Shown: one piece after another, positions 23,111 through 56,285 of the stretch
Layout of the letters: every line of letters starts with the position of its first letter
Position numbering within the stretch: position 1 is the stretch's first letter
NCBI RefSeq assembly: GCF_055900595.2
Contig: NZ_CM148325.1
DNA length: 64,000 bases
Direction: 5' to 3' (one strand)
Made by a program: the position numbers and the translations under genes
The notes under the pieces: model-generated
Database searches by the model: none
The model's input: the letters and a program-made list of their open reading frames with translations, nothing else
What the model was told of the DNA's origin: nothing

Positions 23111-23315
23111 ATCTCTAACCATATGATTTAAAAACAAATCACTTCGCACGGGTGGATTTCAGCACCGCAACAAAGCGCAAGACACGCAGTATACCAGTAA
23201 AACTATTCATTGGCGGAATCTGTTAATAAAGCTCGAATTGTGATGACGATCACACATGTTAAAACCTATAATTAATTGCTACTAAAATATTAATTAATTG
23301 AAATGGTGTCTCTTT

Positions 23316-25706
23316 ATGGCAATTAACAATATCGGCTCGCGACGATTACTCGTCACGCTAACAGCCCTATTTGCAGCGCTTTGCGGGCTGTATCTTCTCA
23401 TTGGCGGAGGCTGGTTGGTCGCGATCGGCGGCTCCTGGTACTACCCTATCGCTGGCCTTGTGATGCTCGGCGTCGCCTGGATGCTGTGGCGCAGCAAACG
23501 CGCCGCACTTTGGCTTTACGCGGCATTGCTGCTTGGCACCATGATTTGGGGCGTCTGGGAAGTGGGTTTCGATTTCTGGGCGCTGACGCCGCGTAGCGAC
23601 ATTCTGGTCTTCTTTGGTATCTGGCTGATCCTGCCGTTTGTCTGGCGTCGCCTGGTCATTCCTGCCAGCGGCGCAGTTGCCGCGTTGGTGGTCGCGCTGT
23701 TGATTAGCGGTGGTATCCTCACCTGGGCCGGATTTAACGATCCACAGGAAATCAACGGCACCTTAAGCGCTGATGCTACACCTGCCGAAGCTATCTCCCC
23801 CGTTGCCGATCAAGACTGGCCTGCCTATGGTCGCAATCAGGAAGGTCAACGCTTTTCACCACTGAAACAAATTAACGCTGATAACGTCCACAAGCTGAAA
23901 GAAGCCTGGGTGTTCCGTACAGGCGATGTGAAACAGCCGAACGATCCGGGCGAAATCACCAATGAAGTGACGCCGATTAAAGTAGGCGACACGCTTTACC
24001 TGTGTACCGCTCACCAGCGTTTGTTTGCGCTCGATGCCGCCAGCGGCAAAGAGAAATGGCATTACGATCCTGAGCTGAAAACCAACGAGTCTTTCCAGCA
24101 TGTAACCTGCCGTGGTGTCTCTTATCATGAAGCCAAAGCAGAAACTGCTTCGCCGGAAGTGATGGCGGATTGCCCGCGTCGTATCATTCTCCCGGTCAAT
24201 GATGGCCGCCTGATTGCGATTAACGCTGAAAACGGCAAGCTGTGCGAAACCTTTGCCAATAAAGGCGTACTCAATCTGCAAAGCAATATGCCGGACACCA
24301 AACCGGGTCTGTATGAGCCGACTTCACCACCGATTATCACTGATAAAACCATCGTGATGGCGGGTTCCGTCACTGATAACTTCTCAACCCGCGAAACGTC
24401 TGGCGTGATCCGTGGTTTTGATGTCAATACCGGGGAGCTGTTGTGGGCCTTTGATCCAGGCGCGAAAGATCCGAGCGCGATCCCGTCTGACGAACACACC
24501 TTTACCTTTAACTCGCCAAACTCGTGGGCACCTGCGGCCTATGACGCGAAGCTGGATCTGGTGTATCTGCCGATGGGCGTTACCACGCCAGATATCTGGG
24601 GCGGTAACCGCACCCCAGAACAGGAACGTTATGCCAGCTCAATTCTGGCGCTGAATGCCACTACCGGGAAACTGGCGTGGAGCTATCAGACCGTTCACCA
24701 CGACCTGTGGGATATGGATCTTCCGGCACAGCCAACGCTGGCAGATATCACCGTTAATGGTCAAAAAGTTCCGGTTATTTACGCTCCAGCGAAAACCGGC
24801 AACATTTTTGTGCTTGATCGCCGCAATGGTGAACTGGTGGTTCCGGCCCCGGAAAAACCGGTGCCGCAAGGCGCAGCGAAAGGTGATTACGTTACCCCTA
24901 CTCAACCGTTTTCTGAACTGAGCTTCCGTCCGACGAAAGATTTAAGCGGTGCGGATATGTGGGGCGCCACCATGTTTGACCAACTGGTGTGCCGCGTAAT
25001 GTTCCACCAGATGCGTTATGAAGGTATTTTCACCCCGCCATCTGAACAGGGTACGCTGGTCTTCCCGGGTAACCTGGGGATGTTCGAATGGGGCGGGATT
25101 TCCGTTGATCCGAATCGTGAAGTGGCAATTGCCAACCCAATGGCACTGCCGTTTGTTTCGAAACTGATCCCACGCGGTCCTGGTAACCCGATGGAACAGC
25201 CGAAAGATGCCAAAGGCACGGGTACGGAATCCGGCATCCAGCCGCAGTACGGTGTACCGTATGGTGTCACGCTCAACCCGTTCCTCTCACCGTTTGGTCT
25301 GCCATGTAAACAACCAGCATGGGGCTATATCTCGGCATTGGATCTGAAAACCAATGAAGTGGTGTGGAAGAAACGTATTGGTACGCCACAGGACAGTATG
25401 CCATTCCCGATGCCCATTCCGGTGCCGTTCAATATGGGTATGCCGATGCTTGGCGGGCCAATCTCCACAGCGGGTAACGTGCTGTTTATTGCCGCTACGG
25501 CAGATAACTACCTGCGCGCTTACAACATGAGCAACGGTGAAAAACTGTGGCAGGGCCGTTTACCGGCGGGTGGTCAGGCAACACCGATGACCTATGAAGT
25601 GAATGGCAAGCAGTATGTGGTGATCTCCGCAGGCGGTCACGGTTCATTTGGTACGAAGATGGGCGACTATATTGTGGCTTATGCGTTGCCGGATGATGTG
25701 AATTAA
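23316..25706 (+). CDS. gcd: Membrane-bound PQQ-dependent glucose dehydrogenase
   Basis: 796 aa from MAINNIGSRR...; N-terminal transmembrane domain followed by a PQQ beta-propeller. The track ORF starts 6 codons upstream at a TTG. Confidence 0.9.
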   Translation: MAINNIGSRRLLVTLTALFAALCGLYLLIGGGWLVAIGGSWYYPIAGLVMLGVAWMLWRSKRAALWLYAALLLGTMIWGVWEVGFDFWALTPRSDILVFFGIWLILPFVWRRLVIPASGAVAALVVALLISGGILTWAGFNDPQEINGTLSADATPAEAISPVADQDWPAYGRNQEGQRFSPLKQINADNVHKLKEAWVFRTGDVKQPNDPGEITNEVTPIKVGDTLYLCTAHQRLFALDAASGKEKWHYDPELKTNESFQHVTCRGVSYHEAKAETASPEVMADCPRRIILPVNDGRLIAINAENGKLCETFANKGVLNLQSNMPDTKPGLYEPTSPPIITDKTIVMAGSVTDNFSTRETSGVIRGFDVNTGELLWAFDPGAKDPSAIPSDEHTFTFNSPNSWAPAAYDAKLDLVYLPMGVTTPDIWGGNRTPEQERYASSILALNATTGKLAWSYQTVHHDLWDMDLPAQPTLADITVNGQKVPVIYAPAKTGNIFVLDRRNGELVVPAPEKPVPQGAAKGDYVTPTQPFSELSFRPTKDLSGADMWGATMFDQLVCRVMFHQMRYEGIFTPPSEQGTLVFPGNLGMFEWGGISVDPNREVAIANPMALPFVSKLIPRGPGNPMEQPKDAKGTGTESGIQPQYGVPYGVTLNPFLSPFGLPCKQPAWGYISALDLKTNEVVWKKRIGTPQDSMPFPMPIPVPFNMGMPMLGGPISTAGNVLFIAATADNYLRAYNMSNGEKLWQGRLPAGGQATPMTYEVNGKQYVVISAGGHGSFGTKMGDYIVAYALPDDVN

Positions 25707-25742: not shown

Positions 25743-25843
25743 ATGCCGGATGCGGCGTGAACGCCTTATCCAGCCTACAAAATTGTGCAAAATCAATGTA
25801 TTGCACAGCCAGCGTAGGCCTGATAAGCGTAGCGCATCAGGCA
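25743..25843. repeat. BIME: two inverted REP palindromes between the convergent gcd and cueO genes
   Basis: ATGCCGGATGCGGCGTGAACGCCTTATCCAGCCTACA and, inverted, AGCGTAGGCCTGATAAGCGTAGCGCATCAGGCA, matching the REP consensus. Confidence 0.7.
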
Positions 25844-25907
25844 GTTTTGCGTTTGTCAGCAGAATAATGCCCGGAGAGATCCGGGCATATTTCCGAATAC
25901 GGTCTTT

Positions 25908-52722: not shown

Positions 52723-52920
52723 ATGTCAGAAACTATTACGGTGAATTGCCCAACCTGCGGGAAAACGGTGGTGTGGGGTGAAATCAGCCCGTTTCGGCCA
52801 TTTTGTTCCAAACGTTGCCAGCTGATCGACCTCGGAGAATGGGCTGCTGAAGAAAAGCGAATCCCCAGCAGTGGCGATCTTTCCGAAAGCGATGACTGGA
52901 GCGAAGAGCCAAAGCAGTGA
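52723..52920 (+). CDS. yacG: DNA gyrase inhibitor YacG (zinc ribbon)
   Basis: 65 aa with CPTCGK...CSKRC zinc-finger cysteines. Confidence 0.9.
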
Positions 52921-52930
52921 CATTTTATCT

Positions 52931-53135
52931 GATGCGACGCTGGCCTGATAAGACGCGGGCAGCGTCGCATCAGGCATCGTGTGCAAATGTCGGATGCGGC
53001 GGGAACGCCTTATCCGACCTACAAGACCTTACATATCAACGTGTTAAAATTGTAGATGCTGATAAGACGCGCCAGCGTCGCATCGGGCATCTTGTGCAAA
53101 TGTTGGATGCGGCATAAACGCCTATCCGACATACA
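52931..53135. repeat. Cluster of four REP palindromes (BIME) between yacG and mutT
   Basis: Units at about 52931-52975, 52990-53024, 53057-53089 and 53102-53135, each matching REP consensus forms (GATGCGACGCTGGC..., GTCGGATGCGGCG...CGCCTTATCCGAC). Confidence 0.7.
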
Positions 53136-53520
53136 CACGCTTAAGCTTCGCAAGTACCGGTTCATTGGCTGGCGGAAAATCATCGGCATTCAGACCGACC
53201 AGCGACATCCACTCACCGGGTTGCCCTTCTTTACCCCACGGCTCCCCTTCCCAGCTTTCGACCAGCCAGAACCACAGTGTTATATGCCTGTCCGGGAATT
53301 CATATTCCAGTTTTTCAAATAGCGAATAATGTTGTGGGGTAATCCCGACTTCTTCCTGAAGTTCACGCACCACCGCCTGTTCCGGCGTTTCGCCCATTTC
53401 AATTTTACCGCCAGGAAACTCCAGTTTATTCGCCATGTGCGCATCTGCGGCGCGACGGGTTATAAAGATTTCATTGTTCTCGTTGCGAATAATACCTACC
53501 GCAATTTGCAGCTTTTTCAT
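53122..53520 (-). CDS. mutT: 8-oxo-dGTP diphosphatase (Nudix hydrolase)
   Basis: MKKLQIAVGIIRNENNEIFITRRA...; Nudix box GGKIEMGETPEQAVVRELQEEVG. The stop codon and last codons lie inside the fourth REP unit. Confidence 0.9.
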   Translation of the reverse strand: MKKLQIAVGIIRNENNEIFITRRAADAHMANKLEFPGGKIEMGETPEQAVVRELQEEVGITPQHYSLFEKLEYEFPDRHITLWFWLVESWEGEPWGKEGQPGEWMSLVGLNADDFPPANEPVLAKLKRVYVG

Positions 53521-53540
53521 TGTCTTAAACCTATAAAAAA

Positions 53541-53558
53541 GGCGCAGAATCCTGCGCC
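53541..53558. terminator. Hairpin between secA and mutT (possible terminator or attenuator)
   Basis: GGCGCAG-AATC-CTGCGCC stem flanked by A6 and T4. Confidence 0.5.
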
Positions 53559-53579
53559 TTTTACTTCAACTGTTAGCTT

Positions 53580-56285
53580 TTATTGCAGGCGACCGTGGCA
53601 CTGCTTGTATTTTTTACCAGAACCGCACGGACAAGGATCATTACGTCCAACTTTGCGTTCACCGGTTTGTGCCGCCAGTGCAGCTGCGGCTGCAGAGTCG
53701 TCATCCTGATGGCTAAGCTGCTGCATTTGCGCTAAACGCTCGGCTTCCATACGACGCTGTTGTTCCAGCTCCTCAACCTCTTCAGGCATACGTACCTGGA
53801 CTTTGCTCAGCGTGCTGATGACTTCATATTTCAGCGACTCCAGCATCGCTGCAAACATGGAGAACGATTCACGTTTGTATTCCTGCTTCGGATCTTTCTG
53901 TGCATAGCCACGCAGGTGGATACCTTGACGCAGATAATCCATCGCCGCCAGGTGCTCTTTCCACAGGGAGTCAAGCGTTTGCAGCATGACGCCTTTCTCG
54001 AAGTGACGCATCATCTCAGCGCCAACCACTTCTTCTTTACGCTGATACACTTCGATGGACTGCGCCAGAATACGCTCACGCAGCGTCTCTTCATGCAGTT
54101 CTGGCTCTTTGTCCAGCCACTCGGCAATCGGCAAATCGAGGTCGAAATCGTTCTTCAGACGTTCCTGCAGCCCCGGAATATCCCACATTTCTTCCAGCGA
54201 CTGCGGCGGAATGTAGGCATCGATGGTCGCTTTGAACACATCTTCACGAATGCTGTTGATGGTATCGCTCACATCGCTGACATCCAGCAGTTCATTACGC
54301 TGGGAATAAATAGCGCGACGCTGATCGTTAGCCACGTCATCATATTCCAGCAGTTGCTTACGAATATCGAAGTTACGGCTTTCAACTTTACGCTGAGCGT
54401 TGGCAATCGCTTTTGTCACCCACGGGTGCTCGATGGCTTCGCCTGGTTTCATACCCAGTTTACGCATCATGCCGGAAACACGGTCAGAAGCAAAAATACG
54501 CATCAGCGCATCTTCCATCGACAGGTAGAAACGGGAAGAACCGGCATCCCCCTGGCGCCCAGAACGACCGCGTAACTGGTTATCGATACGACGAGATTCG
54601 TGACGTTCTGTACCGATGATATGCAGACCACCTGCAGCCAGTACCGCATCGTGACGCACCTGCCAGTCGGCTTTGATTTTTTCAATTTGCTCTGCGGTCG
54701 GATTTTCCAGCGCGGCAACTTCTGCCTGCCAGCTACCACCGAGCACAATATCTGTACCACGACCCGCCATGTTAGTCGCGATAGTCACCGCCGCCGGATA
54801 ACCCGCTTGTGCAACAATCGCTGCTTCGTTAGCGTGGAATTTGGCGTTCAGAACGTTGTGTTTGATACCGGCTTTGGTCAGTTCGTTTGACACCAGCTCA
54901 GATTTTTCGATGGAGATAGTACCCACCAGCACCGGCTGGCCTTTCGCAGTACGTTCTTTGATATCTTCAATGATCGCCTGAATTTTTTCCGCTTCAGTCA
55001 TGTAGACCAGGTCCGGCAGATCTTTACGAATCATTGGACGGTTGGTCGGAACAACGACGGTATCCAGCTTATAGATGGAGCTGAATTCGAAAGCTTCGGT
55101 ATCAGCAGTACCGGTCATCCCCGCCAGTTTTTCATACAGACGGAAGTAGTTCTGGAAGGTGATCGACGCCAGCGTCTGGTTTTCGTTCTGGATCTGTACA
55201 CCTTCTTTCGCTTCCACTGCCTGATGCAGGCCATCGGACCAACGACGTCCCTGCATGGTACGACCGGTGTGTTCGTCAACGATGATAACTTCACCATCTT
55301 TAACGATGTAGTCGACGTCTCGGGTAAACAGCGCATGAGCGCGCAGCGCCGCCGTTACGTGGTGCATCAGCATGATGTTGGCCGGAGAGTACAGAGACTC
55401 CCCTTCATCCATGATGCCTTCTTTCACCAGCAGTTCTTCAATCAGCACCAGACCACGTTCGGTCAGGTTCACCTGGCGAGATTTTTCGTCCACCGAGAAG
55501 TGGCCTTCGCCCTGGAAGGTTTCGGAGTCTTCTTTTTCCTGACGGATCAGGTGCGGAATAATTTTATTCACGCGTTTATACATTTCCGAGCTGTCTTCTG
55601 CCGGGCCGGAAATGATCAGCGGTGTACGCGCTTCATCGATCAGGATGGAGTCCACTTCGTCCACCAGCGCATAGTGCAGTTTACGCTGTACACGTTCTTC
55701 AGGGCTGAACGCCATGTTATCGCGCAGGTAGTCAAAGCCGTATTCGTTGTTCGTACCGTAAGTGATGTCAGCTGCGTAAGCTTCACGCTTCGCCGGTGCT
55801 GGCATACCCGGCAGGTTGATACCGACTGTCAGGCCGAGGAATTCAAACAGCGGACGGTTGTTTTCGGCGTCACGTTGCGCCAGGTAGTCGTTGACGGTAA
55901 CAACGTGTACGCCCTTACCGGTTAATGCGTTCAGGTAAGCAGGCAGCGTTGCGGTCAGGGTTTTACCTTCACCGGTACGCATTTCCGCGATGCAGCGTTC
56001 GTTAAGAACCATACCGCCGAGTAACTGAACGTCGAAGTGACGCATACCAAAGACGCGCTTACTTGCCTCACGCACTACAGCGAAAGCTTCTGGGATCAGA
56101 TTTTCCAGCACTTCGCCTTTTTCCAGACGTGCACGAAACTCTGCAGTTTTCCCTTTAAGTTCTTCGTCGGAGAGTTTTTCCATCTCCGGTTCCATGGCAT
56201 TGATAATGTTGACGACTTTGCGCATCCGGCGCAGGGTGCGATCGTTACGACTACCGAAAACTTTAGTTAATAATTTGATTAGCAT
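53580..56285 (-). CDS. secA: Preprotein translocase ATPase SecA
   Basis: 901 aa, [25 protein letters not shown]...; C-terminal zinc-binding [14 protein letters not shown]. Confidence 0.95.

Follow-up and report, generated by a model that had tools for sequence, protein, structure and literature searches.

The mutT stop codon of Escherichia coli lies in a REP element, and a widespread 132-residue MutT allele ends at a second stop within the same repeat

The window analyzed here is a stretch of 64,000 nt from contig NZ_CM148325.1 (assembly GCF_055900595.2). It has the gene order of an E. coli chromosome, with coaE, zapD and yacG on the plus strand and mutT and secA on the minus strand. The gap from the yacG stop (52920) to the mutT stop is 201 nt long and holds four REP units of alternating orientation, the last of which runs into mutT. 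The features of the region are as follows.

52723-52920, plus strand: yacG, DNA gyrase inhibitor; ORF annotated as yacG in the identical genome NZ_CP098223.1; convergent with mutT.
52929-52942: partial extra REP arm, CTGATGCGACGCTG, seen as an inverted repeat and in the fold; it replaces the GTAG head of REP1, where K-12 has ...GCCGCACGTAGGCC.
52943-52975, minus strand: REP1, Z2-like, with the head (left side) GCTG instead of GTAG; part of an naRNA4 match.
52989-53022, plus strand: REP2, Y-type; head CTAC on the plus strand, GTAG on the minus strand; AA bulge intact.
53023-53051: head-to-head linker between the REP pairs, read from the sequence; it contains TATCAACGTGTTA at 53034-53046.
53052-53088, minus strand: REP3, Z2-type, with its GTAG head at 53052-53055.
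53102-53134, plus strand: REP4, degenerate Y-type, seen in direct repeats with REP2, folds and the alignment with other strains.
53122-53520, minus strand: mutT, 8-oxo-dGTP diphosphatase, 132-aa allele; 53122-53134 are shared with REP4.
53122-53124, minus strand: stop codon used by mutT, a TAG that arises by a 1-nt deletion at the site of the TAA in the REP motif GGATAAGG.
53131-53133, minus strand: former stop, now Tyr130 (TAT), at the site of the final three bases of the GTAG head of the REP, as found in K-12 and every other Escherichia species sampled.

The ORF translates into a MutT of 132 aa with the C-terminus ...LAKLKRVYVG and contains no earlier in-frame stop. The Nudix box GX5EX7REUXEEXGU is present as G38x5E44x7R52E53L54xE56E57xG59I60 (residues 38-60 of the translation), and the structure 1mut (1mut_A) was matched with an E value of 3e-85 over MutT residues 1-129 of the solved 129-aa protein. 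All solved MutT structures (PDB 1mut, 3a6s and others) are of this 129-aa form. An earlier note, made from the letters of the window, described the K-12 protein as about three residues shorter with the end KLKRL; comparison confirmed this, as K-12 MutT has 129 aa, is encoded by a 390-nt gene and ends in ...IAKLKRL, while mutT of the window, O157:H7, O145:H28 and others measures 399 nt. The K-12 and window genes share the Nudix box and the context, secA-mutT convergent with yacG. Their products are 97% identical; the window form differs by Leu129 to Val, F65Y, R89S and I123L and by the three added residues Tyr-Val-Gly.

On the minus strand the last codons are GTG (53136-53134), TAT (53133-53131), GTC (53130-53128), GGA (53127-53125) and TAG (53124-53122). 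As proposed in the earlier note, the final residues and the TAG come from REP sequence: REP4 covers the 3'-terminal 13 nt of the ORF and supplies a single base of the Val129 codon, the whole of Tyr130, Val131 and Gly132, and the stop codon. REP4 codes with its head and mutT-proximal arm, which make up the 5' side of the hairpin once mutT is transcribed.

That four REP units occupy the gap, also part of the earlier note, was borne out by consensus matches, repeats, folds and naRNA4 hits. REP2 matches the Y core GGATGCGGCGNNAACGCCTTATCCG without mismatch and REP3 the Z2 core with one mismatch, with 0 matches expected by chance in either case; shuffles of the 64-kb window gave zero matches to the Y or Z2 consensus pattern. 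Folding yielded -18.7 kcal/mol (z -3.2) for REP2 and -19.0 kcal/mol (z -4.2) for REP3. These units were folded one by one; a fold of the complete 251-nt 3' region paired distant REP units with one another and was uninformative on the local hairpins. The units form a BIME cluster of two Z2(inverted)-Y pairs in tandem at a spacing of 113 nt, visible as direct repeats of 52960-53010 with 53073-53123 (88% identity) and of 53011-53023 with 53123-53135 (92%). As a result of this 113-nt direct repeat, the 3' arm and head of REP2 have their homologue in the final 13 nt of mutT. The Rfam family naRNA4, which describes REP-pair RNAs, matched the first pair (52942-53019, minus strand) with 73.5 bits, over the gathering score of 59.5, and the second pair (53057-53131, minus strand) with 50.7 bits, under that score. 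The MG1655 RefSeq record has no REP features annotated.

The two outer units deviate from the consensus. The 15 nt preceding REP1 are complementary to its far arm, with 52929-52945 pairing to 52957-52973 over 14-17 bp (-30.2 kcal/mol, z -6); K-12 carries GCCGCACGTAGG at that site. This first REP-derived hairpin begins ~8-9 nt past the yacG stop, so that yacG too has one within 15 nt of its stop. REP4 is a degenerate copy. Against the Y consensus GCCGGATGCGGCGTGAACGCCTTATCCGGCCTAC the REP2 core is exact, and REP4 (GGATAGGCG) is 88-92% identical to REP2 with a 1-nt deletion. Its head reads GTAT (53131-53134, minus strand) in place of the GTAG found in REP2 and REP3, GGATAAGG is cut to GGATAGG, the loop is altered and the other arm carries a G-to-A change. 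One A of the AA bulge, which REP2 has, is gone, and the hairpin is weak (-14.3 kcal/mol, z -1.0), not better than shuffled sequence. Nor is REP4 extragenic, since 13 nt including the head lie within the mutT ORF.

The linker sequence TATCAACGTGTTA is a putative IHF site, which we take to fit the consensus WATCAANNNNTTR as in RIP/RIB-type BIMEs. Its K-12 counterpart is TATCAATGAGTTA, and the rest of the linker is only ~60% identical between the window and K-12. A duplication carrying a 3' piece of mutT into the linker was considered and dropped, as the similarity past the REP head is weak by eye. A second BIME of the window, at 25745-25844, comprises a Y unit, a linker and a Z1-type unit (GTAGGCCTGATAAGCGTAGCGCATCAGGC); it begins 39 nt past the stop of an 802-aa ORF (23298-25706) and offers an ordinary, wholly extragenic case for comparison.

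IS1397 and IS621 both target REPs, and insertions of both were found at this site in other strains. In NZ_CP023388.1 (locus L010, ~440-500) IS1397 lies within the Z2-type REP of the yacG-mutT BIME, with ...ggggtgcagttc joined to AGCCAGCGTCGCATCAGGC; in NZ_CP074839.1 (locus L011, ~405-600) the end of IS621 is exactly at the expected GTAG head of the Z2 REP, where ...ggataatacaa is followed by GGCCTGATAAGACGCGG. E. coli REPs are preceded by the tetranucleotide GTAG, which is essential for TnpA_REP with no substitution tolerated (PMC8266576), and binding by TnpA_REP requires the AA bulge (PMC3479197). The crystallised REP GTAGGACGGATAAGGCGTTTACGCCGCATCCG (PMC3479197) has nearly the same sequence as the mutT-adjacent REP. 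Since REP4 of the window has lost both the GTAG and the AA bulge, it is predicted to escape binding and cleavage by TnpA_REP (RAYT) and would be inactive as its substrate. Most simply, REP4 is a decaying, immobile copy.

The mutT ends of 20 E. coli loci and the window fall into two types, CTG TAG GTC R-GA TAA versus GTG TAY GYC R-GA TAA/TAG. K-12 reads CGT CTG TAG GTC AGA TAA GGCG and the window CGT GTG TAT GTC GGA TAG GCG. Other ends of the longer type are ...GTG TAT GTC GGA TAA GGC in O157:H7, ...GTC AGA TAA in O145:H28 (tail VYVR) and ...GTG TAT GCC GGA TAA in the MS7163 / Nissle 1917 type (tail VYAG). Of 5,424 complete E. coli genomes with the locus, at least 3,343 (1,822 + 1,444 + 77) carry the 129-aa tail (CTG TAG) and at least 1,854 (710 + 207 + 937) a 132-aa tail (GTG TAY; VYVG, VYVR or VYAG). 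These counts are based on 40-nt queries in which a mismatch at the discriminating codons abolishes every 28-nt megablast seed; 5,197 genomes were typed in this way, and ~227 (4%) fell in neither class. The 132-aa alleles are present in O157:H7, O145:H28, Nissle 1917 and ATCC 11775, whereas 129-aa alleles predominate among K-12-like and bovine STEC strains. The 381-bp arrangement of the window recurs with at least 99% identity in 86 genomes, and NZ_CP098223.1 is 100% identical over the 381 bp, with its mutT annotated as WP_000736034.1. The longer tail is thus not the strain-specific variant that the earlier note had supposed. As a single-base change decides between 129 and 132 aa, a sequencing error or an ORF-calling artefact could in general produce such an extension. 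Here, this explanation has virtually no probability left, since the population data refute it: at least 1,854 genomes, each finished independently, share these codons, PGAP annotates the 399-nt CDS and no earlier in-frame stop exists. The 132-aa mutT is a widespread natural allele and probably harmless.

The two alleles are separated by a C-to-G and a G-to-T point substitution, which turn CTG TAG into GTG TAT, so the difference is not one of REP content. In K-12 the TAG within the REP head GTAG serves as the stop, and the internal Y units of the window and of the outgroups described below carry the string TTGTAGGTCGGATAAGGCG, identical to the mutT end of the 129-aa alleles (CTGTAGGTCGGATAAGGCG). 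Hence, of the idea that REP sequence at the gene end had created a C-terminal variant, one part stands, in that the last residues and the stop are REP-encoded; the stop of K-12, however, is equally REP-made, and the variant arose by two point substitutions instead of another REP insertion or unit number. NZ_CP085842.1, the engineered amber-free strain B95.deltaA, has the mutT end CTG TAA TGG CTA TAA GGC; recoding of the TAG there altered the REP head and part of the stem as well.

The number of REP pairs varies independently. E. coli gaps contain one pair (~80-100 nt) or two (~190-220 nt), and either tail is found with either number of pairs. The earlier note had proposed to check whether unit number and C-terminus change together; the number does vary among strains, but the tail does not follow it. 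In other Escherichia, 2 to 5 pairs lie downstream of mutT. The BIME has grown to 3-5 tandem pairs in E. albertii, Escherichia sp. E1V33 and SCPM-O-B-8794, with gaps of 334-565 nt. This expansion makes the yacG-mutT locus a copy-number hotspot across the genus.

To polarize the change we compared five outgroup loci, from E. albertii, E. whittamii, Escherichia sp. MOD1-EC7003, Escherichia sp. E1V33 and the divergent SCPM-O-B-8794. MutT has 129 aa in all five, with a stop (TAG or TAA) that runs straight into GTCGGATAAGG or a closely similar sequence, and two of them have exactly CTG TAG. Across K-12 and the other Escherichia sampled, the stop-bearing heads are of the GTAG, ATAG or TTAA type. The shared stop at codon 130 identifies the 132-aa form as a derived stop-loss, and the shared REP at the stop implies that the arrangement is older than the Escherichia radiation.

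These observations are best accommodated by the following sequence of events. A BIME cluster of Z2-type and Y-type pairs would have occupied the yacG-mutT gap already before the divergence of the Escherichia species, with a Y-type REP so close to mutT that the TAG of its GTAG head served as the stop codon. In the head and stem, G-TAG-GTC-GGA-TAA-GG, the TAA of GGATAAGG follows in frame three codons on, so that losing the first stop costs only three residues. In one E. coli lineage the TAG would then have become TAT and the preceding CTG become GTG; readthrough over GTC GGA to the second REP-encoded stop would have extended MutT by three residues (YVG, YVR or YAG). The window allele has additionally lost one A (TAAGG to TAGG), with the stop still at the same codon. 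We consider it very likely that the 132-aa mutT is a stop-loss at a REP-donated stop, caught by a second, in-frame REP stop.

The opposite direction, with 132 aa ancestral in E. coli and the form of K-12 and phylogroup A-B1 a secondary nonsense mutation from TAT to TAG, draws on the distribution of the alleles. O157:H7, O145:H28, Nissle 1917 and ATCC 11775 carry 132 aa and belong to early-branching lineages (group B2 for Nissle 1917 and ATCC 11775 and group E for O157:H7), and most K-12-like and bovine STEC strains have the 129-aa form. Nevertheless, the stop at codon 130 in all five non-coli loci, with the exact CTG TAG in two, speaks against it, as does the fact that CTG TAG carries the canonical REP head GTAG of the internal units. 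Return to CTG and TAG by mutation requires two specific substitutions, and import by recombination would leave 129 aa as the older state anyway. Overall, we regard an ancestral 132-aa form as unlikely, and the stop-loss reading is retained. Within E. coli, polarity is less clean than at the genus level. A neighbor-joining tree of the first 384 nt of mutT is poorly resolved within the species, with tail types intermixed; together with the 132-aa form in early-branching lineages this means that recombination, gene conversion or long-standing polymorphism must be invoked, and one clean stop-loss event may not account for the distribution.

A terminator scan found no intrinsic terminator in the yacG-mutT gap, which leaves nothing but the REPs to give the two convergent transcripts structure at their 3' ends. 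At the other end of mutT, the Salmonella sRNA family STnc40 of Rfam matched 53535-53604 on the minus strand with 81.8 bits (gathering score 45); the match spans the secA 3' end and a terminator-like hairpin, AAAGGCGCAGGATTCTGCGCCTTTTTT, that shortly precedes the mutT start and was missed by the simple terminator scan. Ribosomes are reported to stall at REPs no more than 15 nt from a stop codon (Liang et al., cited in PMC12306157). At mutT the distance is well inside that range: in the 129-aa allele 0 nt separate the stop from the REP stem, which the stop directly abuts in K-12, and in the 132-aa allele the stem begins 9 nt ahead of the stop, which is inside the stem in the window. In either allele the hairpin lies at or across the stop, so that the mutT REP could influence termination and mRNA 3'-end stability, as described before for stop-proximal REPs.

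This geometry invites the view that the overlap is functional: a stop at or in the REP hairpin would tune MutT abundance by way of ribosome stalling, cleavage of the mRNA and tmRNA tagging, and the two alleles would give different MutT levels and hence different mutation rates. Besides the position of the stem, which easily satisfies the 15-nt limit reported for down-regulation of translation (PMC12306157, citing Liang et al.), a REP at the stop is shared by every Escherichia sampled and found again in Enterobacter, Leclercia and Citrobacter. Moreover, the allele substitutions strengthen the stem where the rest of the REP is intact, as evidenced by two loci with otherwise identical REPs, L006 at -20.5 versus L003 at -25.3 kcal/mol (CUG UAG to GUG UAU). 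Because both substitutions add stem base pairs, selection or conversion on RNA or DNA structure, not drift, could have driven the change. Against this, REP4 of the window has decayed to a fold no better than shuffled sequence, contrary to selection for a strong hairpin; hairpin energies range widely, from -6 to -25 kcal/mol, within each allele class; and about half of all E. coli REPs satisfy the 15-nt criterion, so proximity alone is not special. A regulatory role of the overlap therefore seems improbable to us. The more elaborate proposal, that the REP at the stop is a conserved limiter of MutT synthesis through stalling and trans-translation, and that alleles and hairpin strengths would make E. 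coli lineages differ heritably in MutT level and thereby in A:T to C:G mutation rate, is more speculative still and we would put it forward only as a long shot.

The added residues themselves fall where MutT is variable. Across enterobacterial genera the variation lies beyond residue ~126: after ...ANEPVIxKL, tails differ in sequence and length (129-133 aa) in Citrobacter, Salmonella, Klebsiella, Enterobacter, Leclercia and others. With the tail unconstrained in relatives, the C-terminal extension by three residues is probably functionally neutral, judging from the sequence comparison. Several of these enterobacterial mutT genes stop in or beside REP-like GTAGGCC... elements; that of Enterobacter cloacae ends in ccg TAG GCCTGCTAAGCG... 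We also encountered a MutT 79% identical to that of E. coli on QXHL01000193.1, a 424-bp contig of very low coverage in a Firmicutes assembly, labelled Alicyclobacillaceae bacterium I2511. This contig is most likely enterobacterial contamination of that assembly.

The locus shows a repeat element supplying the stop of a gene, with an in-frame backup stop limiting the damage when the first is lost. The 129-aa MutT is not the sole common form in E. coli, as at least one third of finished genomes encode 132 aa, and annotation pipelines and variant callers should not flag the longer protein as aberrant. Editing or recoding the TAG stop of mutT means editing the REP head too. Greater weight would attach to the arrangement only if the REP at the stop proved to control the MutT level. 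A search of literature full text found no description of the yacG-mutT REP locus or of the 129/132 polymorphism, and the RepRanger supplements yielded no mutT or yacG entry; both alleles are routinely annotated in RefSeq. Gene ends encoded by REPs are already known, which makes mutT a newly documented instance and an ordinary finding.

In its consensus and its imperfect hairpin with an AA bulge, the cluster resembles the E. coli REP/BIME system of Y, Z1 and Z2 units with a 5' GTAG (PMC8266576, PMC3479197). It also shares the alternating paired units, the tandem pairs between convergent 3' ends, the copy number that varies among strains and, in other strains, the insertion of the REP-specific elements IS1397 and IS621 at the mutT-yacG site. 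It departs from that system in that the mutT-adjacent unit is not extragenic, its head and mutT-proximal arm being translated, and in that REP4 of the window has GTAT, one bulge A fewer and a weak fold. The REPs known to extend into ORFs and to code for their terminal residues (Di Nocera et al. 2013, PMC3733652) are similar to the mutT case: there, too, the last codons are REP-supplied, the overlap was seen against shorter homologs of related strains and many of the affected genes act in DNA repair. At mutT, however, gene and repeat share only 4 to 13 nt, the REP provides the stop codon itself and the in-frame second stop limits loss of the first to three residues. The stop-proximal regulatory REPs of Liang, Rudd and Deutscher (2015), as they are presented in PMC12306157, likewise have a hairpin right at the stop of the upstream gene. 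The stop of the 132-aa allele is inside the stem, not upstream of it, and the likeness of mutT to these REPs is one of geometry.
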